Assembly (NCBI GenBank): GCA_014874475.1 | Contig: JADBJJ010000027.1 | Coordinates: 95,793 to 159,792 of the forward strand | Direction: 5' to 3' | DNA from: Chloroflexota bacterium | GTDB taxonomy: Bacteria > Chloroflexota > Anaerolineae > B4-G1 > DUEL01 | DNA: 64,000 nucleotides | In this document: in pieces, positions 3,701 through 15,352 of the stretch | Numbering within the stretch: the first letter of the stretch is position 1 | How the letters are laid out: each line of letters starts with the position of its first letter | Made by a program: the position numbers and the translations under genes | Notes under the pieces: generated by a model | Told to the model about the DNA's origin: nothing | Database searches by the model: none | What the model saw: the letters and a program-made list of their open reading frames with translations, nothing else

Positions 3701-4582
3701 GTGATTGTTCCAAAAATTGGCATAGAGTTTGAATTTCAAATATTTCCCCATTTACTGCTCTTTCTTATGCGGCCATCAGTTCCACCAGGGAAATCTTCCC
3801 TCTCCTCAACCCTCCGAATAGGCTGCTTACATTACAACACCGACTCCGCGCTTCTACCCGGCACACCGGGTGCTTCAACCCCAATGCATCGGCCACCTTC
3901 TTGAACCCATCCGCATCATCGGTGACCATCACCTCCGCCTGAACCATCTCGGCGACCTCCCGCAACCACTCCTCCAGCGTCTCTGCCGTCTCGTCTTTCA
4001 GAACCCGGATGCTGATGATGACCCTCTTCTGATCATCCACCGCCACCCCGACCGAATCCATTCCCCCCGGCACTTCACGCTGGTGACATCCCCACCGATG
4101 ACGTTCACCCGCCCTCCTTTCTCCAACCACTGGCGACGCAAGCGCTGGGCTCTCTTCCCTGCCGCCTGTATATTCCGATAAACGGTGGTCTTGCCTAATC
4201 CGATGGGCTTCTTCAGGGTACTCCCCAGCAATGCCAGAAAGAGGGCTACGGCGCCGTAACTGAGTTCCAACAAGTACAGAATCCCACTCACCGCTCGTAG
4301 GGCATCCGAATGATGCGCCCGGGAGACACCCGCTGGGTAGGCCCGAAACGTCCGCCGACAACGGAGACAGCGATAGCGCATCGCCTCCACTTCCTCATAC
4401 TCCAGGTCTCGGAGGGGTTTGGGGCACACTTGGAGCGCCTTGAAAAAGCCCCCACCGCAAAAAGGACAACGGGTCGGGGGAGCGGGGCTGGTGTTCACGA
4501 CCGGAATCCGTAGATTGTAAGTCCTCAATGTTCTCACCTCCCACAGAATCTCCCCCTATTTTACCATACCCGGAACAATCAC
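3701..4582 (-). mobile_element. IS1-family insertion sequence (~882 bp) with imperfect terminal inverted repeats (GTGATTGTTCC at both ends).
   Basis: The ends are 3701 gtgattgttccaa and 4572-4582 ggaacaatcac (reverse complement). The internal InsA-like (Zn-finger plus HTH) and InsB-like (DDE) coding regions are present. A related end fragment occurs at 45385-45559. Confidence 0.65.
3765..4537 (-). pseudogene. IS1-family transposase (InsAB'-like) split into two overlapping frames by a frameshift at a G6 run.
   Basis: ORF 3998-4537 carries CPFC…CLRC zinc-finger and HTH motifs plus '…NVIGG'. ORF 3765-4361 continues 'MDSVGVAVDDQ…VTDDADGF', which parallels IS1 InsB 'EMDEQWGYVG…MTDGWPLY'. The frame change maps to the C6/G6 homopolymer at 4063-4068. 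Confidence 0.6.
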
Positions 4583-4666
4583 AAAGAACGCGAGGGCTTG
4601 CCCTGCAGGGGTTTTTATGCTAAAATTAAATCGGTTCGTCCCCCTGCGCTGGCCCCGGAGGAGAGA

Positions 4667-6364
4667 ATGGCGGGTAAAAAAACCCTTCCTGGCCAGTTCC
4701 GCCAGAAAATCCAGTGGTGGTACTGGCGCCATGCCGATGAATGGCCCATTTCGGCTCTCAAGCGATATATCAAAGCTCTCTTTATCCTGTTGTTATGGAC
4801 TCTGACAGCCATTGGGCTCTTCCGCCTCCTGATGTTCCTGCTTCCTGATACTCTCCGCATCCCACTGACAGGCAGAGAGACGGGCGAAGCCTCTAAAGAA
4901 TCCGTTGCCCTCCTGGGCTCCCTCCTTGCTGCCCTGATCGGTTTCGCCCTTCAGCAGTGGAAGGGTCAGGAAGAGGAAGAACGGCGACATCAGGAGGAGG
5001 AAAACAGCGCCATATCCCTGATTGAGGAGAGGCTTTGTGACTCTCGCGGAGATTTATCAGAGATTGCACGCCACTATCTGGACTTCCGAAAGAAAGGAGG
5101 TGTTTGGCAGAGTAACAGAGTCCGGGCGAGGAGAGAAGAGATTTGGGAAAAGTTAGCACCTCCAGAACTCCGATGCGCCATAGCTGTGATGGAAAACCTG
5201 CCGGAAATAAAGGATTTTGATTGGTCGGAACAAGTGGATGCTCTCCACTGGGCCTCTAATTATCTGGATGAAGATTGGCAATCCCGGGCGGTTAACGCCC
5301 TGCTTGATCTGCAGTGGACGGAGAAAGCATGGCGTACGATTCTGTATATGTGGCCTGAGGTATCTCTGGGCAAAGCCCTCTTCATCCCGGACCAACGGAC
5401 CGTTCAGGGCCTTCATTTTTTGAAGTTGAAGGTCAACCCGTTCGGTTCGGAAAGGGCGGAAGCAGATGCCGATCTGCTGAAGGCCCGGGTTATCCCTTCG
5501 TGGTGGGAAAAATTGGCATCCCTCTCTGATGGGCTTTTCTTCACTGCGCCTGGAGGCGGCAGGACTGCCGCTGCGCTTCTCCTGGCCTACGACGTTCTGG
5601 ATAAGAGAACTGCATTTCCCGTCTACTGCCGGATAACGACAGCCCAGTTAGGCCTGGCTGACCTGGCTCGGTGGACAGCACAGGCGATAGCCCGATACAT
5701 CGCGCTTTCCCCTCTCGCTTTCACAAAATGCTCCTACGACGCCAGGCGGGCGATCAAACGGCTCCTTTTCGGCTATATGCCGGCAAACCCCCTGTTGTAT
5801 CTTCAGGAGGCAGGGCTGCCGCTCATAGGAGAGGGCGGAAAGGTGCTGGAGGAGTTCAGGACCCCTCTCGCCGATTCATCCAGGCCAGCCTTCTCTCAGA
5901 CCGATCCTCTCGCCTTGTTGGGCGAAGCCCGCCCAGCGGATTTCCCCCGCACTCTGATTCTGGCAGATGTCCAGGGAGTCGTAGATACCGAAAATGTTGT
6001 CCTCTCTTTTTATGGCTTACACAAAGCACTGGAGCAGGTCGGGGTTACCCTTCAGGTCTTTCTGGCTGCGTCCCCTGCTACAAACCTGCAGAGATACGGA
6101 GAGTTGCTGGAATGGTCGGAGGAAGACCTCCGGGCTTTGCTTCGGAACCGGCTGATCTTCCTTTCCCCCGATGACTCTCTGGATGCCTGGTGCGACATGC
6201 GGGTATGGGAAGAGGATTCAGTGGAGGAGCGGCTTATAAAAGCAGCGGAACGCAACCCGCGCAGGTTGATTCAAAAAGGCAACGCTCTACTTCAGCGCAT
6301 TGGCGAGACAAGGCGCCGGCTGAGACCCGAAGATGTGGATGAAGTGCTGGGCCAGAATCTCTGA
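4667..6364 (+). CDS. Membrane-anchored protein (N-terminal TM helix) with a degenerate P-loop. It is a paralog of the next two NTPases.
   Basis: GGAGGAGA lies before ATG 4667. There is a TM segment (ALFILLLWTLTAIGLFRLLMFLL). The motif 'TAPGGGRTAAAL' corresponds to APAGGGKTAL in the paralog, with K->R in Walker A. 'TLILADVQG' is Walker-B-like. The stop overlaps the next start (TGATG). Confidence 0.55.
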   Translation: MAGKKTLPGQFRQKIQWWYWRHADEWPISALKRYIKALFILLLWTLTAIGLFRLLMFLLPDTLRIPLTGRETGEASKESVALLGSLLAALIGFALQQWKGQEEEERRHQEEENSAISLIEERLCDSRGDLSEIARHYLDFRKKGGVWQSNRVRARREEIWEKLAPPELRCAIAVMENLPEIKDFDWSEQVDALHWASNYLDEDWQSRAVNALLDLQWTEKAWRTILYMWPEVSLGKALFIPDQRTVQGLHFLKLKVNPFGSERAEADADLLKARVIPSWWEKLASLSDGLFFTAPGGGRTAAALLLAYDVLDKRTAFPVYCRITTAQLGLADLARWTAQAIARYIALSPLAFTKCSYDARRAIKRLLFGYMPANPLLYLQEAGLPLIGEGGKVLEEFRTPLADSSRPAFSQTDPLALLGEARPADFPRTLILADVQGVVDTENVVLSFYGLHKALEQVGVTLQVFLAASPATNLQRYGELLEWSEEDLRALLRNRLIFLSPDDSLDAWCDMRVWEEDSVEERLIKAAERNPRRLIQKGNALLQRIGETRRRLRPEDVDEVLGQNL

Positions 6365-7791
6365 TGAGCACAGAACTGCTTGAGTCCGAATCTCCCCCAA
6401 AGCGGTCTGCCGGTTCAGGGGCCAACCCTCCTGGCCCAGTGGCCTTTCGGTTCCTTCGGGCCGAGGAGGAGCCCTGGCTTTCGGCCTGTTTTGTACCTCC
6501 ACCGGAATTCAGCCGCATGGCCGAGTCTCGCTCCTGCGTCATTTTTGGCGAGCCGGGGAGCGGCAAAACGGCCATTTGTCGGGAATTACAGGCGCGCAAT
6601 ACTCGCCCGGATGGTAGGCCCGTGCGCCTGATGACCCCCTGGAGACCTTCTCCGCCCCCGCTGGAGGTCCGCCCCGACCTGGCATGGGTCAGACGACTGG
6701 TGGAAGGGCTACTGGACGCCTGCGCTGCGGCGCTGGTCCAATACCTCTGCCGGTTTCCAGAGGATTACACCCGTGCTCCTACCTGGGCCCAGGACCGCCT
6801 GATCTGGTTCATCCACCGATACACCCTCGGTCAGCCGGAAGTCCGATGGGGGCCGTGGGCAGAAGGCTCCTATCCCGGCGCCCCTCTGATCCGGCGGATT
6901 CTGAGCGCGCCCGTCCCCGTCATTCTGTATGATGATGCCTCTCCGGAGATGGTAATGGCGGAATTGCTCAGCGGATTGGGGGGACTGGGTTTAGAGGGTC
7001 TCTGGGTGATAGCCGACGGCCTGGAAGGGTGGGCCAACGTGGCCTCGGAACATCTGACGGAGAGCCTGAAATCATTTCTTTCCACCCTCTCTTTGTTTGG
7101 CCAATACAGCCCGGTGTACAAGTTGTTCTTGCCAGATGAAATGGAGCCAGCCATCAGCCGCGCCGAGGGGCTGAGCCGACGGCGGATAGAGGGGGTCCGG
7201 ATCCGGTGGGATGCTCCTGCCCTGAAAAGTCTGTTGGAACGGCGCCTGGCTTTTGCGTTCGGGCGGGAGACATTCCCCTTAGAGCAACTCTGTAACGCCC
7301 CTGGGCTACCCGGATGGCTGGAGAAAGTGGGGGGAACATCGCCCAGAGAATGGCTGGACCAGGTGGCATTGCTGGCAGAGTATTACGCGATGCAACCTCA
7401 AAGTGCGCCTATTGACGAGGAAACGTGGAAAACACTGCGGCGGGAACACCCTCTGCGCGTTTACTTGGACGAGGAGAAGCGACAGGTAAGGATTGGAGGC
7501 CGTCTGATAAATCTGGAGGACTTACCAGCAAAAACCTATGAAATGCTCCGCTACCTGTATCGCCACAGTGGCCGGGTGGTCACTAAAGCCGAATTGTACT
7601 TCCGGGCGTATCTCGGCAAGGACCGGGTTCCTCGCCAGGGGGATAATGATTACGAGTGGCCTACCCGATATGCAGGCCTGATAGACACAAACCTCTGGCG
7701 TCTGCGACAAGCGATAGAGCCGGACCCCGACGATCCGGTCCTCCTGATCACTCGCCGGGGGCATGGCGTCATTCTTCAAGTTCGGTGGTGA
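6364..7791 (+). CDS. P-loop NTPase fused to a C-terminal OmpR/PhoB-type winged-helix DNA-binding domain.
   Basis: Walker A is GEPGSGKT and Walker B is LWVIADGLEG. The C-terminus ('TYEMLRYLYRHSGRVVTKAELYFRAYLG…NLWRLRQAIEPD…LLITRRGHGVILQV') matches the trans_reg_C fold. It is translationally coupled to the upstream gene. Confidence 0.6.
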   Translation: MSTELLESESPPKRSAGSGANPPGPVAFRFLRAEEEPWLSACFVPPPEFSRMAESRSCVIFGEPGSGKTAICRELQARNTRPDGRPVRLMTPWRPSPPPLEVRPDLAWVRRLVEGLLDACAAALVQYLCRFPEDYTRAPTWAQDRLIWFIHRYTLGQPEVRWGPWAEGSYPGAPLIRRILSAPVPVILYDDASPEMVMAELLSGLGGLGLEGLWVIADGLEGWANVASEHLTESLKSFLSTLSLFGQYSPVYKLFLPDEMEPAISRAEGLSRRRIEGVRIRWDAPALKSLLERRLAFAFGRETFPLEQLCNAPGLPGWLEKVGGTSPREWLDQVALLAEYYAMQPQSAPIDEETWKTLRREHPLRVYLDEEKRQVRIGGRLINLEDLPAKTYEMLRYLYRHSGRVVTKAELYFRAYLGKDRVPRQGDNDYEWPTRYAGLIDTNLWRLRQAIEPDPDDPVLLITRRGHGVILQVRW

Positions 7792-7896
7792 GAAATGGGT
7801 AAGGTAACTGCAAGCCATCTTAGAGAGATTTGCAATCTCAGCAAGCCATAGTTGTGCCATAATATATCTACACTCTCATAAGGAAGGGGTGAGAAT

Positions 7897-7986
7897 ATGC
7901 CATTTTTCCTATCCGGCGCCTTCCTACCTGGCCCGGCGCAAACCGTGTGCCCACTTCTTCACCCTCCCGCTTCCCTCTTCCCGTAA
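7897..7986 (+). CDS. Small ORF (29 aa, MPFFLSGAFLPGPAQTVCPLLHPPASLFP) with a strong SD, translationally coupled to the following NTPase gene.
   Basis: AAGGAAGGGG sits 7 nt upstream of ATG 7897. Stop TAA (7984-7986) overlaps ATG 7986 of the downstream gene as TAATG. The downstream gene has no SD of its own. Confidence 0.35.
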   Translation: MPFFLSGAFLPGPAQTVCPLLHPPASLFP

Positions 7987-9179
7987 TGGCTTCTCCAGAT
8001 AGCCCTATCGCTCAGATGCCAGGTGCGCCGGAGGTGACCGCATGGCTGAGTTGGGCCGGGTTTCGGTTTGACCCCTTCGGGCCCCTGGATGCTGCCGCAG
8101 ATCCCCACCTCAGCGAATATCTGGTCGGTCACCATATCTTTGCGCGCGTCTGGGGAGACGACTTATCCTGGGTTTTCGCTCCGGCAGGCGGCGGTAAAAC
8201 GGCTTTGCGCATCAGTGTGATGCAGGCCTGCTGGGTCGGACAGGAAACCAATCGCCCATTTCCCATCCCCTATGTACCTCCTTTCCTTTCCTGGGGACAC
8301 GCGCATCCCTCGGAGGAAGAACACCTCGCGGCCCTGGCTCGTGCAGGCGCAATAGCGCTCTTCCTGGCTCTGGCCTACCGTGTCCACTGGTTTCTCCGCT
8401 TGGATAAGTCGGAGCGCCGGCGCGTTGCTGAAGTGCTCCGCTGGAATCTTCCCGGTCCCCTTCCAACCTATCTGGAGCGATGCCGTTCGATCCCCAGTCC
8501 TCAAACTCTGTCGGAGGTTCTGGACCCCGCTTTTATCCTCCGAAGCCCACCAACCCCTGCCGATCTATTGAGGTGGTGCGACGCTCTGGAAGCGGCTTGT
8601 GGGGATGAGGCACCGCCTCCCCTCCGCGAGCGGTGGATGCGACTGAAGGAACTCTTGCGGGATATGGGTTTCCCGAGCATCTACATTTTGCTGGACGGGC
8701 TGGATGGCACGCCCGAAACCATCGCCAATCCGTCAGCTATAGCCCTTTGTATGGAGCCTTTGCTACGATGGGCGGAGAAGTGGGCAGAGGAGCGGGTATT
8801 TCTGAAGGCGTTCCTTCCTGCGGAAACGCAGGCCTTGATGGAGGACCGCTTCCGGGACGTGTTTGCTCCCGCGCGGGTATCCGTCATTCACTGGACGCCA
8901 GACCTGCTGGCGGAGGTCGTTCGCCGACGAGTCTACGTGGCGACCGAGGGCGCCTTTGGTAGCTTAGATGCACTGGCATCCCCGGCCCTGCGGGATATAG
9001 AGACCTTGCTGGCCAAGACGGTCTATCCCCTTCCCCGCGAAATGCTGGTGATCACTCGCCGGGTGATAGAAGAGCACCTCCGGCATGGCGGAAATGGCCT
9101 TTTAGCAGAAGCGGATGTAAAGGCCGCCATCCAGTGGTACCAGACGACATCCATCTATTTCTCTTTTACCCCCGCATGA
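7947..9179 (+). CDS. P-loop NTPase, paralog of 6364-7791 but lacking the winged helix.
   Basis: Walker A is APAGGGKT and Walker B is IYILLDGLDG. The C-terminal region is colinear with the upstream paralog (VSVIHWTPDLLAEVVRRR vs VRIRWDAPALKSLLERRL). The likely true start is ATG 7986, coupled to the uORF; 7947 is the GTG given in the ORF track. Confidence 0.6.
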   Translation: MPTSSPSRFPLPVMASPDSPIAQMPGAPEVTAWLSWAGFRFDPFGPLDAAADPHLSEYLVGHHIFARVWGDDLSWVFAPAGGGKTALRISVMQACWVGQETNRPFPIPYVPPFLSWGHAHPSEEEHLAALARAGAIALFLALAYRVHWFLRLDKSERRRVAEVLRWNLPGPLPTYLERCRSIPSPQTLSEVLDPAFILRSPPTPADLLRWCDALEAACGDEAPPPLRERWMRLKELLRDMGFPSIYILLDGLDGTPETIANPSAIALCMEPLLRWAEKWAEERVFLKAFLPAETQALMEDRFRDVFAPARVSVIHWTPDLLAEVVRRRVYVATEGAFGSLDALASPALRDIETLLAKTVYPLPREMLVITRRVIEEHLRHGGNGLLAEADVKAAIQWYQTTSIYFSFTPA

Positions 9180-9190
9180 GGAGGTTTCAA

Positions 9191-10315
9191 ATGGCTATTA
9201 GACTTTCTCCACCTCCGTACTCACCGGACAAGTTTGTGGATCGGGATGACGAATTAAGGCGGCTGGATGCCATTCTAGAGTCCGGTGAAACGCGCGCTGT
9301 TATTTTTAGAGGAGAGCGCGGTGTCGGGAAATCCTGGCTACCCGCTCACTGGGAATGGCAACTTCGCCGACGTAAAGACCTCCAAGTGCTGCGGCTGGAC
9401 TTGAAGGAGTACAAGGGGAAGGATCCGGGGTGGGCCATGGCACATATGATCCGTCGGGTCAGCGAGAAGATCGGACAGGCTGGAGAGGCACTGGGCGCTG
9501 GCCTGACCGAGATGTCCCGTGCGCTTCTCCAGAATGTCCGTAAGATGGAGAAAAAGATAGTCCTTATCCTGGACCACGTTTATGAATCGGATTGGGCACT
9601 GCTGGCGTTGCTGGAGGAGTACCTGGTGGCTCCCCTGATCGCGGAGCCCCGCGTGTTCATAGTCCTGACAGGGCGCGGCCGATGGTATCCATGGAGGACA
9701 CCTGACCTGAACCTTCGCGCAGAGCGGATGGTTGTGGAACCGCTTCCAAGCGAGGAGGAAACTCAACGACAATTGGAGAAGCAAGCCCCTCAGAGCCGTC
9801 AAAAGGCCAGGGAAATCCACCGTTTGACAGGAGGTAATCCTCTGGCCAATTACCTTCTCGCTGCGGAGCCTCAGCCCGCTCAGGTATCAGAATCAGTTAT
9901 TGAGAGTTTATTGGAGCCGGTCCCGGAGGAAGACCGTCAGAAAATCCGGCAATATTTGGAAGCGCTCTGTGTTCTGCGCGCTTTTGATGAAGAACGGATT
10001 CCTGAAATGATGGCGGTTTATACTGAGAACTCTTCTTACCGGGAGTGGACATATGCTCAGGCCCGGCAAGTACGAGATGAACTGATCCGCTGGGCACTGG
10101 CTCAGTGGGATACTGACCAGAAAGCGTATACGCTGGATAGAATCGTCCGGCAGTTGACAGAAACTCATCTGAAACAAAATCGGCGGGAGAAATGGGTCGC
10201 TCTCCACCAGGCGGCGGCACAGATGTATGAGCGCTGGGCGAGCGATCACCCCGCTTCAGCGCCACGCTGGGAAAAAGAGAGGCAGTATCATCTTGAACGT
10301 TTGCAAAGCCCATGA
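9191..10315 (+). CDS. STAND/NB-ARC-type (AAA_16-like) NTPase, single-domain.
   Basis: GAGGAGG lies before ATG 9191. The motifs are 'FVDRDDELRRLDAIL…RGERGVGKSWL' (Walker A), 'IVLILDHV' (Walker B) and 'TGGNPLA' (GxP motif). Confidence 0.6.
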   Translation: MAIRLSPPPYSPDKFVDRDDELRRLDAILESGETRAVIFRGERGVGKSWLPAHWEWQLRRRKDLQVLRLDLKEYKGKDPGWAMAHMIRRVSEKIGQAGEALGAGLTEMSRALLQNVRKMEKKIVLILDHVYESDWALLALLEEYLVAPLIAEPRVFIVLTGRGRWYPWRTPDLNLRAERMVVEPLPSEEETQRQLEKQAPQSRQKAREIHRLTGGNPLANYLLAAEPQPAQVSESVIESLLEPVPEEDRQKIRQYLEALCVLRAFDEERIPEMMAVYTENSSYREWTYAQARQVRDELIRWALAQWDTDQKAYTLDRIVRQLTETHLKQNRREKWVALHQAAAQMYERWASDHPASAPRWEKERQYHLERLQSP

Positions 10316-10337
10316 CCGTTTACAAGGAGGCAGAGCG

Positions 10338-13300
10338 ATGAGCCCCTTTTTTATCCACCCGGAAGAAGTATACTTGAGCCCTATCGCCACGGTGACGCTG
10401 ATTGGTCGGAAGGGTGAACTGGATGTTTTGGAAAAAGCCATTCGGGATTGCCCCAACCGGTATGTGATTTATCTCACCGGACAGGGCGGCATTGGAAAAA
10501 CTCGACTGCTTCAACATCTCCTTCAAAACCCTCCCGAAGGCTTGCCCCTTCAGGTTGCTATCCAGCCGGTGGATATGTACCACACCATTAACCATACTGT
10601 GGAAGGGCTTCTCCAGTCCATCCAGAAGGTCATCTCCCCCGACGGAAGCGGCTTTGAACGGTATCTGGAGGAACGAGAGAGATGGATGCGGATACCCAGC
10701 GAAGAAAGTAAGCGGTGGCAAGAGCAACGGGAACGGATGATCGGGGCTTTTATCCAGGATTGGAACGCATTGGCGCAGAAAATCCGCATCCTAATCGGCC
10801 TGGATACGGTGGAGCGGCTGTTCCTCCAGGATGACCCTGTGGCTCACGAGTTGGGTCTTCCCCTTAGCACTCCCCTGGTCTACAACTGGCTTCTGAAAGA
10901 TTTCCTCCCCCACCTTCAAAATACGGTGGTCGTTCTGGCCGGCCGCCCTATTCCTATGCCTGTAGTAGAAGAACTCAAAAAAATCGGGGAGCTTATTCAA
11001 GTCTCGCTCTCAGGTTTTACGGAGGAGGAAACTTTAGAATACTTTCAAGCGCTCATCCCGCATCTCCAGGGGAGTTCTGAACCGCGAGACCGCATGGCCG
11101 CCGAGGTATTGTCCCGATGGAACGATGATCTCCGCCGGATGTTTTTCTACGGCCTGCGGGACGACGGCACGGTACGCCCGATCTTCCTTGCCCTGGTCAT
11201 AGACTACCTGACAGTCACTGGGCGGCCCTTTCCGGTAGGACGATCCCTGGTGGAAGTTAAGAGTCTCTCCGAGGAAGATCGGGAGAGGCTTCAAGAGGAG
11301 TTGTTGAAAGGGGTAGAGGAGGAAATTCGCAACGCACTCCATCCAACCGAAGAGATCGTGAGAGTCCTGAGTTGGTTGCACCGGGGGGCCGATGAAAATC
11401 TTTTAGGCCAAATCACCGGTATTGGCGAAGAAACGCTGAAAGAGGCATGTGAGCGGGTTCGCCGCCTCTCCTTTGTGAAAATCCGCCCTGCCGACCAGCG
11501 CCTCTTCCTGCACGATGAAATGTATGCCCTCCTCCGCAGTTTACACGGTGTCATCCCTGAGAGAGCGTTCAAACCCGTCCGGGAATATTATGGAGCGCTC
11601 ATTGATCAGATCAAGAAAAGCATCTGGAGTCTATATGAGGCTCAACCTTATCTTTCCCCTTCAGAGCAAGTTGCCCTGGAAACAACCCGCCTCCGGGAAG
11701 CGATAACGGAGGACCTCCATTACAAATTGCACCGGAGTTTTGACAAAGGGTTTGATCAGTATTTCATCTACGCCGAAGAAGCACTGGCTATGGGTGACGA
11801 GACACTGGATGTGGAGTTGCGAGCGGAATTGGTGGAATTTCTGAGGGAGCAAAACGCCTCCCCTCCAGCCGATGTCCGGGCCGACGCGGCCGTCCGGTGG
11901 GTCAAACGACAGATCAGTGCCGGAAATCTCAACGAAGCGCTATCACTGATCCAGAAAATACGCGAAGAAGCCCGGCATCTGGTTGAACCCGGCGGCCTTC
12001 TTACCCAGGCCGAGTTGGATATTGCCGAGGCCACAGTCTATCTTTACCAGGGAAATCTTGATAAGGCCGAACAACGGTTGTCCGAAGCCCAGCAAAATCT
12101 GGAGCGCTTTCAGGTCTCTCCAGAAACCCCCGTCCGTTTCAATGCTGTGATGGGTCGGTTGTATAATCACTGGGGGTATCTACGGAGGGTACAGGGGCAA
12201 TTTGGTGCTGCAGAGGAGAAGTATCGTAAGGCTCTCCCTTACTGGCGCGCTGCCAGCATGGAGGCTGAGCAAGCCAACACGTTAACCAATCTGGCTTTCG
12301 TGCTGGCATTACGGGGTCGGTTTGACGCCGCTCGCCGTCAGGCGCAGGATGCTTTAAAACTGCGCGGGCAACTGGGGATGACTGGCGCCGTTGCCTTTAC
12401 GCTAAACACTCTGGCCCAGATAGAGATTTATGCCGGGCAGTACCGGGACGCTGAAGATTGGGCCCGTCGGGCCCTGGCTGTGGCCCAGGGTGCCGGATTC
12501 CGTCGTGGCGAGGGACTGGCCCATCTCTCTCTGGCCAGCATTTACCGATATATGAGCGAGCCGCCTTGCCCGGCTGCAAATCGGCGAGAGTGGCTGGAGA
12601 AATCTCTGGAACACAGTTCCAGGGCGCGGGAAATCTTCTCCAAAGAAATCTCAGAGCCAGAGCGGCTCGGTACGGCCTATTACGAGGATGCCATTGCCCA
12701 CCAGGAATTCTGTCGCCCTCCCTTGATAGAAGGCATTGACGTTAAGAGGCACGCCGATCAATCTGAAAAATCGTTTCAGCAGGCAATGAAGATTGCAGAA
12801 GAATGTAGGTTATGGCCCCTTTATTTGGATGCGGGAATGGGTCTGGCTTGGCTTTACTATTATACCGAGGAGAAAGAGAAACTGGCTTCCCACCTGGAAT
12901 CTCTGGAGACATTTCTCCAGGAGCAGTTTGCTTCACTCCAGATTACTCCAACTGCCTCTCCATCAATTGGAGAAGATACAATTCTTGATGTTTTCTCTCA
13001 GAGGGCCCGATGGCACGTTTTAAGGGGAGTGCAGGCACTGGATGGCTTTGACTCGGCCCGTGAGAGCCGGCAAGCGCCGCCGTATCCTTCATTGAGGCGA
13101 GCCGCCCGGGAATTTGCTTTGGCCCTGGAATATGACACCCTGGTGGCGGACAACTTCCGGGACCTTCGTCGAGCCCTTAATCTCATCTATGAGCGGTTGA
13201 AAGTGCTGAACACGGCTGAGTTGAGGGCCTTCTATGAGACCATCACGGAAATGGCTGATGAATTCCCCTGGAAGCCCCGCGAGGAATGGCGTTTGTGGAA

Positions 13301-13355
13301 AGAACTCGTGGATCACTTCGGCCCTTATGATGAACTGCGTCCGCCGGCCTTATGA
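10338..13355 (+). CDS. Large STAND NTPase: N-terminal NB-ARC-like ATPase plus central TPR repeats and a C-terminal domain of unknown function.
   Basis: AAGGAGG lies before ATG 10338. The Walker A is 'LIGRKGELDVLEKAI…YLTGQGGIGKTRLL'. TPR-like repeats fall at roughly residues 600-760 (…ANTLTNLAFVLALRGRFDAARRQAQDALKLR…). Confidence 0.65.
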   Translation: MSPFFIHPEEVYLSPIATVTLIGRKGELDVLEKAIRDCPNRYVIYLTGQGGIGKTRLLQHLLQNPPEGLPLQVAIQPVDMYHTINHTVEGLLQSIQKVISPDGSGFERYLEERERWMRIPSEESKRWQEQRERMIGAFIQDWNALAQKIRILIGLDTVERLFLQDDPVAHELGLPLSTPLVYNWLLKDFLPHLQNTVVVLAGRPIPMPVVEELKKIGELIQVSLSGFTEEETLEYFQALIPHLQGSSEPRDRMAAEVLSRWNDDLRRMFFYGLRDDGTVRPIFLALVIDYLTVTGRPFPVGRSLVEVKSLSEEDRERLQEELLKGVEEEIRNALHPTEEIVRVLSWLHRGADENLLGQITGIGEETLKEACERVRRLSFVKIRPADQRLFLHDEMYALLRSLHGVIPERAFKPVREYYGALIDQIKKSIWSLYEAQPYLSPSEQVALETTRLREAITEDLHYKLHRSFDKGFDQYFIYAEEALAMGDETLDVELRAELVEFLREQNASPPADVRADAAVRWVKRQISAGNLNEALSLIQKIREEARHLVEPGGLLTQAELDIAEATVYLYQGNLDKAEQRLSEAQQNLERFQVSPETPVRFNAVMGRLYNHWGYLRRVQGQFGAAEEKYRKALPYWRAASMEAEQANTLTNLAFVLALRGRFDAARRQAQDALKLRGQLGMTGAVAFTLNTLAQIEIYAGQYRDAEDWARRALAVAQGAGFRRGEGLAHLSLASIYRYMSEPPCPAANRREWLEKSLEHSSRAREIFSKEISEPERLGTAYYEDAIAHQEFCRPPLIEGIDVKRHADQSEKSFQQAMKIAEECRLWPLYLDAGMGLAWLYYYTEEKEKLASHLESLETFLQEQFASLQITPTASPSIGEDTILDVFSQRARWHVLRGVQALDGFDSARESRQAPPYPSLRRAAREFALALEYDTLVADNFRDLRRALNLIYERLKVLNTAELRAFYETITEMADEFPWKPREEWRLWKELVDHFGPYDELRPPAL

Positions 13356-13356
13356 G

Positions 13357-13785
13357 GTGAGGCGATATCGGCTTCAGGATCAGAATGCTCTCCATTCTGC
13401 GATCAACGCCGTCTGCGCCGAGGGGATGATGCGCACCCCCCGCTTTGAGCCCACCCCGGCCTGGGAGCACGCGCTGGCGTGCCCGGATTGCCCCTGCCAC
13501 CTCCTGTTGGTAGCGGAAGAGAGGCCGCATATCGCAGGCTGGTGTCGCCTTTTCCCAACCGACGAGGGTACACTGGAGTTGGGTATCGGGGTGGTGGCCC
13601 CATACCGCCACCGGGGGATTGGCCGCGCACTGCTGGCAAACGCGCTGGACTGGGCCTCGGCTCGGAGGATGCCGGTGGTGCTGGAAACCCGAACCGATAA
13701 CATCCCGGCCGTTCGCCTGTTCACTCGCTTCGGCTTCCACGTGGTCGGGCAGGCGGACGGACACTGGCAAATGCGATATCCGTAA
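13357..13785 (+). CDS. GNAT-family N-acetyltransferase.
   Basis: GTG 13357 lies 2 nt after the stop of the upstream gene. The motif 'YRHRGIGRALLANALDWA…LETRTDNIPAVRLFTRFGF' is the acetyl-CoA-binding motif A/B. Confidence 0.6.
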   Translation: MRRYRLQDQNALHSAINAVCAEGMMRTPRFEPTPAWEHALACPDCPCHLLLVAEERPHIAGWCRLFPTDEGTLELGIGVVAPYRHRGIGRALLANALDWASARRMPVVLETRTDNIPAVRLFTRFGFHVVGQADGHWQMRYP

Positions 13786-13828
13786 CCCCTCTGCGACCTG
13801 CGACTTGCGACCGGTGAGGAGGCAACCC

Positions 13829-15352
13829 GTGGCGACGAACAAGATGGACTTTCCCCAAATTTTCTGGGATTCCAGCCGCGAACGGGCGGAACTAGAACCG
13901 GTTACCGAAACCGACTGCGCCTGCGCGCCCGCTGGGCCCTCTGATCCGCAATCTGCCATCTCCCATCCGCCATCCGCAGGCCTCTGGGGACTTCCCCCCT
14001 CCCTCTATCGCGCCCCCCTCCCCAACGGCCACCAACTGGCTTTCAACCCCGTCGGCCCCGCCGGTGTGGTGGTGCTGAACGGCCCGGCGGCCCATCTCCT
14101 GGCTTCCTTCGCCACCCCAGCCCCTCTGGCCGACCACACCGCCCGCCAACTGGCCGCTCTGGGCCTGCTCACCCCGACCCACGCAATGGAATACGCAAAG
14201 CGCTACACGCCTCACGTCCTCACTCTCTGGCTCCACCTCACCACCCGCTGCAACCTCCGTTGCGCCTACTGCTACGCCCCCCGGGGCGACGCCGATATGC
14301 CCCCAGAGATTGGGCGGGCAGCAGTGGACGGGGCCATCCGTTCCGCGCAGGCCCACGGTTTCCAGGCCCTGAAACTCAAGTACGCCGGCGGTGAGCCTCT
14401 CTTCAATCTCCCCACCCTCCGCGCCGTCCACGAGTGGGCGCGGGCGCGCGCGGCGCAGGCCGGCCTGGAACTCCGGGAGGTGATTCTCACCAACGGGACC
14501 ACCCTCACCCTTGCTCTGCTGGCCTGGCTCCGAGATGAAGGGGTCCGGCTCTCCGTCTCTCTGGACGGCCTGGGTCCGGCCCACGACGGGCAACGGGTGG
14601 CGGCCAGCGGCGACGACTCCTTTGCTGCTACCGCCAGGGGGTTGGAGCGGGCGCTGGCCCTGGGCCTTACCCCTCATCTATCCATTACCGTCACCGCGCA
14701 CAATGTGGACAGGCTGGCAGAGGTGGTGACCTTCGCCCTGGACCGGAACCTCCCCTTCAACCTGAACTTCGTCCGCCCGACCCCCGGTCATCTCAACCTG
14801 GCCCCGGCGCCGGAACGTCTCATCGCCGGCCTGCAGGCCGCCCTCTCTGAGATAGAGCGCCGTCTGCAATCCGCAACCTCTACTCTGCCATCCGCTATCT
14901 GCCATCTGCTGGACCGCTGCGACTTCAGCCTCCCCCACCACTACCCCTGCGGCGCTGGACACGCCTATATCGTGGTGGGTCCGCAGGGAGAACTGGCCCC
15001 CTGCCATATGAAGATGGAGCGCACGGTGGGCACCATTTGGGAGGAAGACCCACTGGCGGCGGTGCAAGGGGAGGACGGGTTCCACAACCCGCCAGTGGAG
15101 GAGAAAGAAGACTGCCGGGAATGCCTCTGGCGCTACGTCTGCGCGGGCGGATGCCCCTTAATGGCCCAACGGCATCGGGGCACCCCCGCCGCTCCATCCC
15201 CCTACTGCGCCGTCTATCAAGCCATCCTCCCCGAACTTCTGCGGCTGGAGGGGTTGCGGTTACTACGCGATAGACCACAAGCCCCAGCCCCTGAACCGCG
15301 GTCAGTTATCAGCGAAGACCCTCGTTCCTCCGGGAGACCGGCGGCCCAGTAG
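13829..15352 (+). CDS. Radical SAM enzyme with a C-terminal SPASM domain and an N-terminal PqqD-like RRE. This is a RiPP/peptide-modifying type.
   Basis: GAGGAGG lies 7 nt before GTG 13829. The radical SAM core is CNLRCAYC (CxxxCxxC). The C-terminal Cys cluster (CGAGH…CHM…CRECLWRYVCAGGCP) is the SPASM domain. The N-terminal ~110 aa contains 'LAFNPVGPAGVVVLNGPAAHLLASF', which is RRE-like. Confidence 0.7.
   Translation: MATNKMDFPQIFWDSSRERAELEPVTETDCACAPAGPSDPQSAISHPPSAGLWGLPPSLYRAPLPNGHQLAFNPVGPAGVVVLNGPAAHLLASFATPAPLADHTARQLAALGLLTPTHAMEYAKRYTPHVLTLWLHLTTRCNLRCAYCYAPRGDADMPPEIGRAAVDGAIRSAQAHGFQALKLKYAGGEPLFNLPTLRAVHEWARARAAQAGLELREVILTNGTTLTLALLAWLRDEGVRLSVSLDGLGPAHDGQRVAASGDDSFAATARGLERALALGLTPHLSITVTAHNVDRLAEVVTFALDRNLPFNLNFVRPTPGHLNLAPAPERLIAGLQAALSEIERRLQSATSTLPSAICHLLDRCDFSLPHHYPCGAGHAYIVVGPQGELAPCHMKMERTVGTIWEEDPLAAVQGEDGFHNPPVEEKEDCRECLWRYVCAGGCPLMAQRHRGTPAAPSPYCAVYQAILPELLRLEGLRLLRDRPQAPAPEPRSVISEDPRSSGRPAAQ

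Follow-up and report, generated by a model that had tools for sequence, protein, structure and literature searches.

A Shine-Dalgarno-led leader open reading frame as a candidate ribosome delivery element upstream of a P-loop NTPase gene in Chloroflexota

The present analysis concerns a short leader open reading frame (ORF) in front of a P-loop nucleoside triphosphatase (NTPase) gene of a Chloroflexota bacterium, located in a stretch of 64,000 nucleotides (nt) from contig JADBJJ010000027.1 (assembly GCA_014874475.1, positions 95,793 to 159,792) that is referred to here as the window. All coordinates are positions in this window and were read directly from the sequence. With a probability of roughly 55%, we consider the ORF at 7897-7986 to be a leader mini-cistron whose translation supplies ribosomes to the NTPase gene, the start of which has no Shine-Dalgarno (SD) sequence. 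The transcript would start at a conserved promoter between the gene g475 (6364-7791) and the NTPase gene (7986-9179), the very strong SD would bring ribosomes to ATG 7897, and ATG 7986, lying SD-less behind a purine-poor tract, would rely on ribosomes arriving from the leader ORF. In this genome, delivery would proceed by termination-reinitiation at the sequence TAATG, in the same geometry as the TGATG that joins the upstream genes g588 and g475, while in relatives with an early leader stop it would require post-termination scanning across a spacer of ~17-60 nt that is poor in start codons. Alternatively, translation of the leader may melt a structure that masks the main start.

The signals on which this reading is built can be located precisely. 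The sequence AAGGAAGGGG at 7880-7889 is followed by seven nucleotides (TGAGAAT) and by ATG 7897-7899, and at the other end of the ORF the stop codon TAA 7984-7986 shares one A with ATG 7986-7988, which results in TAATG. Direct reading thus confirmed two statements of a preliminary description of this DNA, namely that an SD stands 7 nt before ATG 7897 and that the TAA of a 29-codon ORF overlaps ATG 7986. The strength of SD sequences was expressed as the duplex energy against a generic 16S 3' anti-SD tail, and all 940 plus-strand ATGs of the window were scored. The SD of ATG 7897 reached -13.2 kcal/mol, a value equalled or beaten by only 0.5% of these ATGs and stronger than those of the neighbouring genes g393 (-12.7), g1042 (-11.2) and g588 (-9.5). 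This degree of complementarity suggests strong ribosome binding at ATG 7897. The candidate starts of the NTPase gene, all of which share one frame, yielded -2.5 (GTG 7947), +1.9 (ATG 7986) and -1.1 kcal/mol (ATG 8016), so that none of them possesses an SD, again in agreement with the earlier description.

Among these candidates, ATG 7986 is the best-supported NTPase start. Close homologues of the protein start with Met-Ala-Ser at its equivalent, and ATGGCTTCT, which comprises ATG 7986 and specifies Met-Ala-Ser, is invariant or nearly so in 13 aligned class-1 relatives. GTG 7947, which had been put forward as a possible gene start, was discarded as this codon is present only in the window and in L060/L139, and ATG 8016 was rejected because several relatives have Thr or Trp in place of its Met. 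Public annotations are inconsistent at this point, with identical NTPase DNA being annotated as a protein of 387 amino acids (aa) from ATG 8016 (P0001) and as one of 397 aa from ATG 7986 (P0121). Since the main frame is open across the leader, gene callers often add 50-100 codons to the 5' end of the NTPase ORF in relatives.

For a comparison of the leader among relatives, upstream regions were obtained from species-representative genomes, Joint Genome Institute (JGI) metagenomes and contigs encoding specific homologues, and about 30 orthologous loci were compared. The leader is alignable where the NTPase is 64-85% identical, and it then consists of the -10 element, ~20 nt, a G-rich SD and the sequence ATG-CCN-TTT-TTN-NTA. 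The ATG of the leader ORF is invariant in the alignment of 13 sequences; a G-rich SD is found in every ORF-bearing relative, with a sequence that drifts, and the first five codons are conserved as M-P/S-F-F/L-L/I together with a U-run. Of 83 unique upstream regions, 19 contain an SD-led ORF of the pattern M-x(0-2)-F-[FLI]-[LIR] at the equivalent position; shuffles yielded 0.98 on average and 5 at most. The leader ORF was also present in L139-L142 and L144-L150, and the conserved start was seen in every further close orthologue that was fetched and for which upstream DNA was available. Examples of the encoded peptides are MSFFLSGALLPGPA (L141), MLFLLSGDFSVGPA (L003), MPFLLNGSSLLSPE (L064), MPFLISCPYPTGLA (L142), MSSFLIPGLLLRPA (L074), MPFLIPNRAPILRTQK (L145) and MPSLIRTCVLVLLIRA (L009), and short versions are MSFLIPK (L148), MVFIRK (L080) and MFLIRRRTP (L042). 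Conservation of the small ORF upstream of homologues of the NTPase gene, which the preliminary description had singled out as informative, therefore applies to its start (19/83 versus about one expected) and not to its length, which ranges from 6 to 29 codons, with 14 codons in most class-1 and 16 codons in most class-2 and class-3 relatives and 6-9, 17, 23 or 29 codons in the others.

The history of the long form can be traced to a single codon. The class-1 relatives with 14 codons (L003, L141, L142, L137, L062-L064, L068 and L074) carry TAG, TAA or TGA at codon 15, whereas this codon is CAA in the window, L002, L060 and L139. In L141, which belongs to the same clade as the window and whose protein is 77% identical, codon 15 is TAA. 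Parsimony thus favours a loss of the stop by a change from TAA to CAA as the event that gave rise to both the 29-codon form and the TAATG overlap, since an ORF deprived of its ancestral stop at codon 15 would have continued across the stop-poor spacer up to the following stop, the one overlapping ATG 7986. L061 arrived at the same end state independently, with TTG at codon 15 and TGATG at the end. Judged from this distribution, the SD, the ATG and about five codons form a real and old core, and the 29-codon length and the TAATG overlap are to be seen as a recent, lineage-specific and derived state. The ORF had been described earlier as possibly encoding a leader or coupling peptide, with only the coupling geometry being certain; for this genome the geometry holds, but it is derived, and it is the start of the ORF (SD, ATG, ~5 codons) that is conserved rather than the 29 codons or the TAATG arrangement.

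Several features of sequence variation suggest that the leader ORF is translated. Indels near its start are codon-sized (one additional codon in L074, one codon less in L080), the positional entropy in the ORF frame is 8.2, 8.2 and 10.8, with third positions varying most, and the position of the stop is kept at 14 codons in class 1 or 16 codons in classes 2 and 3 while TAG, TAA and TGA interchange. In the clade of the window, codons 2-14 contain eight variable sites, six of which are synonymous with respect to the ORF, and the ratio of nonsynonymous to synonymous differences (pN/pS, calculated according to Nei-Gojobori) is 0.42 in the ORF frame versus 1.97 in the main frame. As a point of caution, the first Phe of the leader peptide is always encoded by TTT. 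In the spacer, the Nei-Gojobori frame test revealed no frame with a clear excess of synonymous change. The conserved sequence MPF(F/L)(L/I) may either act as a regulatory nascent peptide or merely reflect a U-rich, unstructured initiation region, and a Pfam search with the 29-aa leader peptide yielded zero matches.

A dependence of NTPase translation on the leader ORF is suggested by the organisation of the surrounding genes. The other starts of the cluster possess either a strong SD (ATG 4667, 9191 and 10338) or the TGATG overlap of g588/g475; with all neighbours SD-led or coupled, an SD-less and uncoupled start would be an exception in the operon. Within the gene family, 16 of 59 unique contexts have T[AG]ATG at the main start, versus 12.5% expected, an approximately 2-fold excess among sequences that are not independent of each other. 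In a distant clade (L026, L031-L034, L039 and L111), the arrangement AGGAG-N8-ATG-TAATG-GCT creates a one-codon ORF in the same phase, located ~63-68 nt upstream of an FNPF anchor, and the SD is spaced for this one-codon ORF and not for the main ATG. The single feature that suggests homology between the one-codon ORF of the distant clade and the ORF of the window is the shared GTAATGGCT context. These data support the view that translation of genes in this family often starts with the help of a short upstream ORF.

The proposed arrangement resembles three types of known systems. Termination-reinitiation coupling is known from trpE-trpD and trpB-trpA with UGAUG and from many operons with AUGA; as in the trp pairs, the stop of an SD-led ORF shares a base with an SD-less AUG in the window. 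Here, however, the upstream cistron is a 29-codon leader without an evident function of its product, the overlap is not conserved, and most orthologues stop 17-60 nt upstream. Leader peptides of the ermC, cat/cmlA, tnaC or speFL type are likewise short SD-led ORFs in a 5' leader with few conserved N-terminal residues, and a pairing of the leader-ORF region with the downstream initiation region is possible in both cases. In contrast to these systems, which precede resistance or catabolic genes, the leader ORF described here shows no recognised arrest motif, its alternative structures are statistically weak, and the gene downstream encodes an uncharacterised P-loop NTPase for which no inducer is known. 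Start-stop upstream ORFs (uORFs), in which an AUG and a stop codon stand beside the main start, were observed in E. coli by start-site profiling, and the distant clade mentioned above exhibits the same order of SD, ORF, TAATG and main gene with one codon, while the ORF of the window comprises 29.

A number of observations weigh against ribosome delivery by a translated leader. Only the window, L002, L061 and L074 have a leader stop that overlaps the main ATG; in the other ORF-bearing relatives the leader stop precedes the main ATG by 5 to ~60 nt or more. As the overlap is not conserved in most relatives, the mechanism is not uniform if coupling is the function. In the Thermoflexus-like clade, pN/pS is 0.28 in the main frame versus 3.16 in the ORF frame, albeit with small counts. 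A U-run likewise follows the ATG of g1042 and the main ATG of L042 and L074, and the conserved 'peptide' may represent a U-rich, unstructured initiation region maintained at the nucleotide level. In L001, ATA replaces the ATG and the SD is lost, and L006 and L016 also have no ATG; its absence from these three loci indicates that the leader ORF is dispensable. Finally, the coupling model does not account for why the ORF keeps a constant phase and why the main frame is open throughout the leader.

The loss in L001, the locus with the most similar protein among those recovered (85%), would also fit an ORF that exists by chance in a stop-poor leader, with the NTPase gene starting independently at ATG 7986, GTG 7947 or ATG 8016. 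The purine fraction of the leader is only 0.28 and all three frames are open from 7897 to 7984, so that the length of the ORF alone means little, and one public annotation (P0001) indeed places the gene start at ATG 8016. Nevertheless, we regard a chance ORF as improbable. Conservation of the SD, the ATG and the first codons far exceeds what chance would produce; neither GTG 7947 nor ATG 8016 is maintained in relatives, as outlined above for the choice of the start codon, and SD-less, uncoupled starts were not seen elsewhere in the operon.

The constant phase would be accounted for if ribosomes that start at ATG 7897 slipped by -1 on the U-run (A UUU UUC, followed by CUA) into the NTPase frame. 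The product of such recoding would be an NTPase isoform with an N-terminal extension of ~30 residues, and the short zero-frame peptide would be a mere by-product, which would explain its variation in length. In all 21 sequences (21/21), the ATG of the ORF stands in the -1 phase to the main frame, with a spacing of 41-98 nt that is always 2 mod 3, and L149, L150 and L083 share this phase. Of 23 sequences, 22 have a main frame without stops from one ATG to the other, and 18 have a closed third frame. According to shuffles that keep the mononucleotide composition, the probability of an open main frame is 0.34-0.76 per sequence, and the product over 10 in-phase lineages not selected for long gene calls gives a joint probability of roughly 0.003. 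Part of the variation is synonymous in the main frame (Thr ACC/ACA/ACG; Ser-Gly TCC/TCT, GGT/GGC/GGA) and radical in the ORF frame. Furthermore, conservation extends to the U-run and the codon after it, NUA or AGA. CUA ranks among the rarest codons: CTA has a frequency of 3.8 per 1000 codons, accounts for 4% of Leu codons and is, tied with TTA, the rarest Leu codon in the window. The SD is positioned 9-12 nt upstream of the U-run, which in the case of dnaX is a stimulatory distance for -1 shifts, and a GC-rich hairpin starts 4-5 nt past it. In L149 and L150, a main-frame ATG five nucleotides after the ORF ATG encodes the extension directly, and gene callers carry the proteins of these two loci through the leader. 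A non-AUG main-frame start at the position of this ATG was considered for the other genomes and rejected as a general start, as the codon is ATT in the class of the window and GTT, GTC or GGT elsewhere.

Despite these points, we consider slippage into the NTPase frame unlikely, and it is rather doubtful that the SD-led ATG 7897 is the true start of a longer NTPase isoform made by a post-initiation -1 shift conserved across a Chloroflexota gene family, in which the still-engaged initiation SD, the rare next codon and the hairpin at 7913-7936 would assist. Programmed -1 frameshifting in dnaX occurs on the slippery sequence A AAA AAG with an SD-like stimulator upstream and a hairpin downstream, and HIV-1 uses U UUU UUA. 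The leader shares with these cases an N UUU UUN run, an SD 9-12 nt upstream, a GC-rich hairpin downstream and an open -1 frame that is continuous with the long ORF and conserved in phase; it differs from them in the mismatch at the first position of the heptamer, in the location of the site at codons 3-4 and in several orthologues that break the phase. Specifically, A UUU UUC fails the consensus X XXY YYZ at its first position and is degenerate in L009, L080 and L083; the phase is broken in L013, L014 and L015, and a stop interrupts the main frame in L005. The third frame is open beyond +14 in ~7 of 10 lineages and is thus mostly open once a conserved TAA at +10/+13 has been passed, and the purine-poor composition therefore explains much of the openness. 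The seven sequences L144-L150 were picked for long gene calls, which introduces a bias to open frames. Moreover, the spacer shows no purifying selection in the main frame, substitutions in the clade of the window are synonymous in the ORF frame and not in the main frame, U-runs after the ATG also exist at ordinary starts in the operon, and distant homologues have their start close to the position of ATG 7986, so that the core protein does not need the extension. The hairpin itself is 73% paired overall, with its CCGG/CCGG core retained in 85-92% of 13 relatives and with C-to-U wobble changes; its covariation is modest overall, and it is unrecognisable in class 2.

Pairing within the leader transcript leads to the question of whether the conserved element is an RNA structure or a regulatory site in which the ORF is incidental. 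Two structures come into consideration, a helix of GAGAA-uau-GCCAU (7891-7903) with AUGGC-UUCUC (7986-7995), which would join the two starts, and a duplex between the SD and the anti-SD-like tract UCACCCU. RNAalifold predicted the start-start helix, in which 96% of cells are paired across 13 sequences and two pairs covary; its one-sided changes all lead to G-U pairs, and 5 of 500 shuffles reach the observed score. Codon 2 of the ORF, which varies between P, S and L, does so only by changes that keep the pairing. In the clade of the window, GGGGG/GGGAG in the SD tract is matched by CCCCC/CUCCC, with p = 0.01-0.05 for L002, L141 and L003. On the other hand, no match to Rfam 15 was obtained at E <= 1 for 7000-9000 on both strands, the fold of the leader has a z of -1.25, and the RNAalifold consensus reaches only -3.9 kcal/mol. 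The start-start duplex is no better than those formed with other windows of the same RNA, ranking at ~30-90 of ~135 in most sequences; the helix is unrecognisable in class-2 relatives, and for 9 of 13 sequences shuffled spacers form as good a duplex with the SD tract as the real ones. Structure alone is in our opinion a rather unlikely basis of the conserved element, given that an invariant ATG at optimal distance from a strong SD and maintained stops are hard to explain without translation. Unmasking of the main start through structure is a possible component of ribosome delivery but not its main explanation.

The preliminary description had also raised the possibility that the ORF encodes a functional small peptide, notably the precursor modified by a radical S-adenosylmethionine (SAM)/SPASM enzyme encoded 6 kb downstream. 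Most relatives carry the genes for this enzyme and for a GNAT protein in synteny with the NTPase genes. The enzyme is similar to peptide maturases (its best match, rSAM_nif11 with 1.9e-42, lies below the cut-off), and the cluster contains no other conserved intergenic small ORF of at least 20 aa, as a search for conserved small ORFs of at least 20 aa across the cluster returned only out-of-frame shadows of large genes. The phyletic pattern, however, argues against this idea: the radical-SAM enzyme is kept at 30-47% identity in clades in which no such ORF was found or only a one-codon ATG-TAA is present, namely L017, L019-L021, L027, L031, L033, L035, L043 and L047-L049. In addition, the ORF comprises just 6-16 codons in most genomes, residues 1-5 alone are conserved, and the C-terminal 'core' cannot be aligned between clades. 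The sole Cys of the peptide of the window lies in the lineage-specific extension, three genes separate the ORF from the maturase at a distance of 6 kb, and the peptide has no Pfam match. We therefore consider a role of the ORF as a functional small peptide, including that of radical-SAM/SPASM substrate, very improbable, and the earlier suggestion was abandoned on account of the phyletic pattern, the length of the ORF and the lack of a conserved core.

The promoter assumed for ribosome delivery by the leader is represented by CATAAT at 7858-7863. This -10 element, noticed earlier as sigma70-like, was found to be conserved and to be extended by TG at 7855-7856. A scan for two-hexamer promoters did not find a -35/-10 pair, and it is the conservation of the extended -10 that suggests a promoter function. 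Upstream of it, direct repeats with a period of 11 bp (7788-7814) are the sole match to their pattern in 64 kb, with 0.09 expected, and the first GTGAG repeat overlaps the TGA stop of g475, an AAA+/winged-helix gene. The repeats probably form an operator at the promoter from which the leader would be transcribed; they look like an operator of the OmpR/PhoB type for the C-terminal domain of g475 itself. The sequence TTGCAA at 7829-7834 accompanies the repeats. The features of the leader and of the adjacent genes are listed in Table 1.

Table 1. Positions of the leader elements and neighbouring genes in the window
Feature	Position	Strand	Remark
g588	4598/4667-6364		SD GGAGGAG, supported start ATG 4667
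g475	6364-7791		AAA-type P-loop domain, C-terminal OmpR-type winged helix; TGATG overlap with g588
Three direct repeats, 11-bp period (GTGAG-N6-GTAAG-N6-GCAAG)	7788-7814	+	same place in most orthologous loci
Extended -10, TG-C-CATAAT	7855-7863	+	(C/T)ATAAT kept at the same position in aligned relatives
Shine-Dalgarno tract AAGGAAGGGGTGA	7880-7892	+	-13.2 kcal/mol duplex, top 0.5% of window ATGs
Leader ORF, 29 codons, MPFFLSGAFLPGPAQTVCPLLHPPASLFP	7897-7986	+	conserved core: ATG plus codons 2-5
U-run TTTTT (7903-7907) and CTA (7909-7911)	7903-7911	+	invariant alignment columns T39-T43, A47 (13 sequences)
GC-rich hairpin CCGG-C-GCC, loop, GGC-CCGG	7913-7936	+	part of predicted fold
Codon 15, CAA	7939-7941	+	stop here in most class-1 relatives (TAG or TAA; TGA in L074)
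Pyrimidine-rich spacer, poorly conserved	7942-7983	+	read as uORF codons 16-29 only in this genome
TAATG, leader-ORF stop overlapping the NTPase start	7984-7988	+	read from sequence
P-loop NTPase g397, 397 aa, Walker A APAGGGKT	7986-9179	+	no SD of its own
g393, ATPase_2	9191-10315		SD AGGAGG, supported start ATG 9191
g1042, STAND-like P-loop domain with TPR repeats	10338-13355		SD AAGGAGG, supported start ATG 10338

The gene set is co-directional, and the leader ORF lies in its one intergenic gap of appreciable size. The NTPase encoded at 7986-9179 had zero matches in a Pfam search and weak, sub-threshold matches to Sll1717-family and DS41 ATPases, and every named one of its 239 homologues originates from metagenome-assembled genomes of Chloroflexota. 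Literature searches on the Sll1717 family and on uORFs or frameshifting in Chloroflexi revealed nothing relevant. The genes g588 and g475 are joined by the TGATG stop-start overlap at 6362-6366, and g1042 is followed by a GNAT-like ORF and then by the radical-SAM/SPASM gene, which probably starts at ATG 13844 without an SD. Mechanically called ORFs start too far upstream for g588, g393 and g1042, whose SD-supported starts are at 4667, 9191 and 10338. According to tblastn comparisons of ~60 loci, the order g475-g397-g393-g1042 is kept in most, g588 and the GNAT gene are present in many, and the radical-SAM gene is found in most loci that are long enough, its synteny with the NTPase genes persisting to about 30% identity. 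The cluster order (4598-15352 in the window; L001-L058) spans Thermoflexales, Anaerolineae, Roseiflexus and Chloroflexaceae, likewise to about 30% identity. PADLOC provided no credible assignment of the cluster to a defence system, and Pfam likewise gave the system no assignment.

Some additional observations were made in and around the cluster. The start of g1042, ATG AGC CCC TTT TTT ATC (MSPFFI) behind AAGGAGG, resembles that of the leader ORF, ATG CCA TTT TTC CTA (MPFFL); this likeness may reflect either a general U-run after the ATG in initiation regions or an origin of the leader from a duplicated 5' gene end. Two overlapping minus-strand ORFs at 3765-4537, just upstream of g588, are transposase-like with a zinc-finger-like N-terminus (CPFCGG...), which suggests a remnant of an insertion sequence at the edge of the cluster. 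In L007/L072, an insertion of ~300 nt with G+C palindromes (CCCCCGCCGCGGCGGGGG and others) replaces the leader ORF upstream of the NTPase gene and looks like a repetitive extragenic palindromic (REP) or miniature inverted-repeat transposable element (MITE). L013 (DYJM01000064.1) carries a cluster of the Chloroflexota type on a contig binned as Acidithiobacillus ferrivorans, a label that is probably a binning error.

Taken together, the comparison corrects the start of the NTPase gene, on whose position public annotations disagree, and implies that the substrate of the radical-SAM enzyme is to be sought elsewhere. The conserved reading phase and the open main frame make the leader a reasonable candidate for recoding. 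The clade of the window would illustrate how the loss of one stop codon turns a detached leader ORF into an overlapping and directly coupled one. To our knowledge, there is almost no experimental work on translation in Chloroflexota. If ribosome delivery by the leader is the correct reading, this would be a clean, phylogenetically supported case of a bacterial uORF in this phylum, feeding ribosomes to an SD-less gene within a conserved, uncharacterised gene set that comprises several P-loop/STAND NTPases, a winged-helix regulator, a GNAT protein and a radical-SAM/SPASM enzyme.

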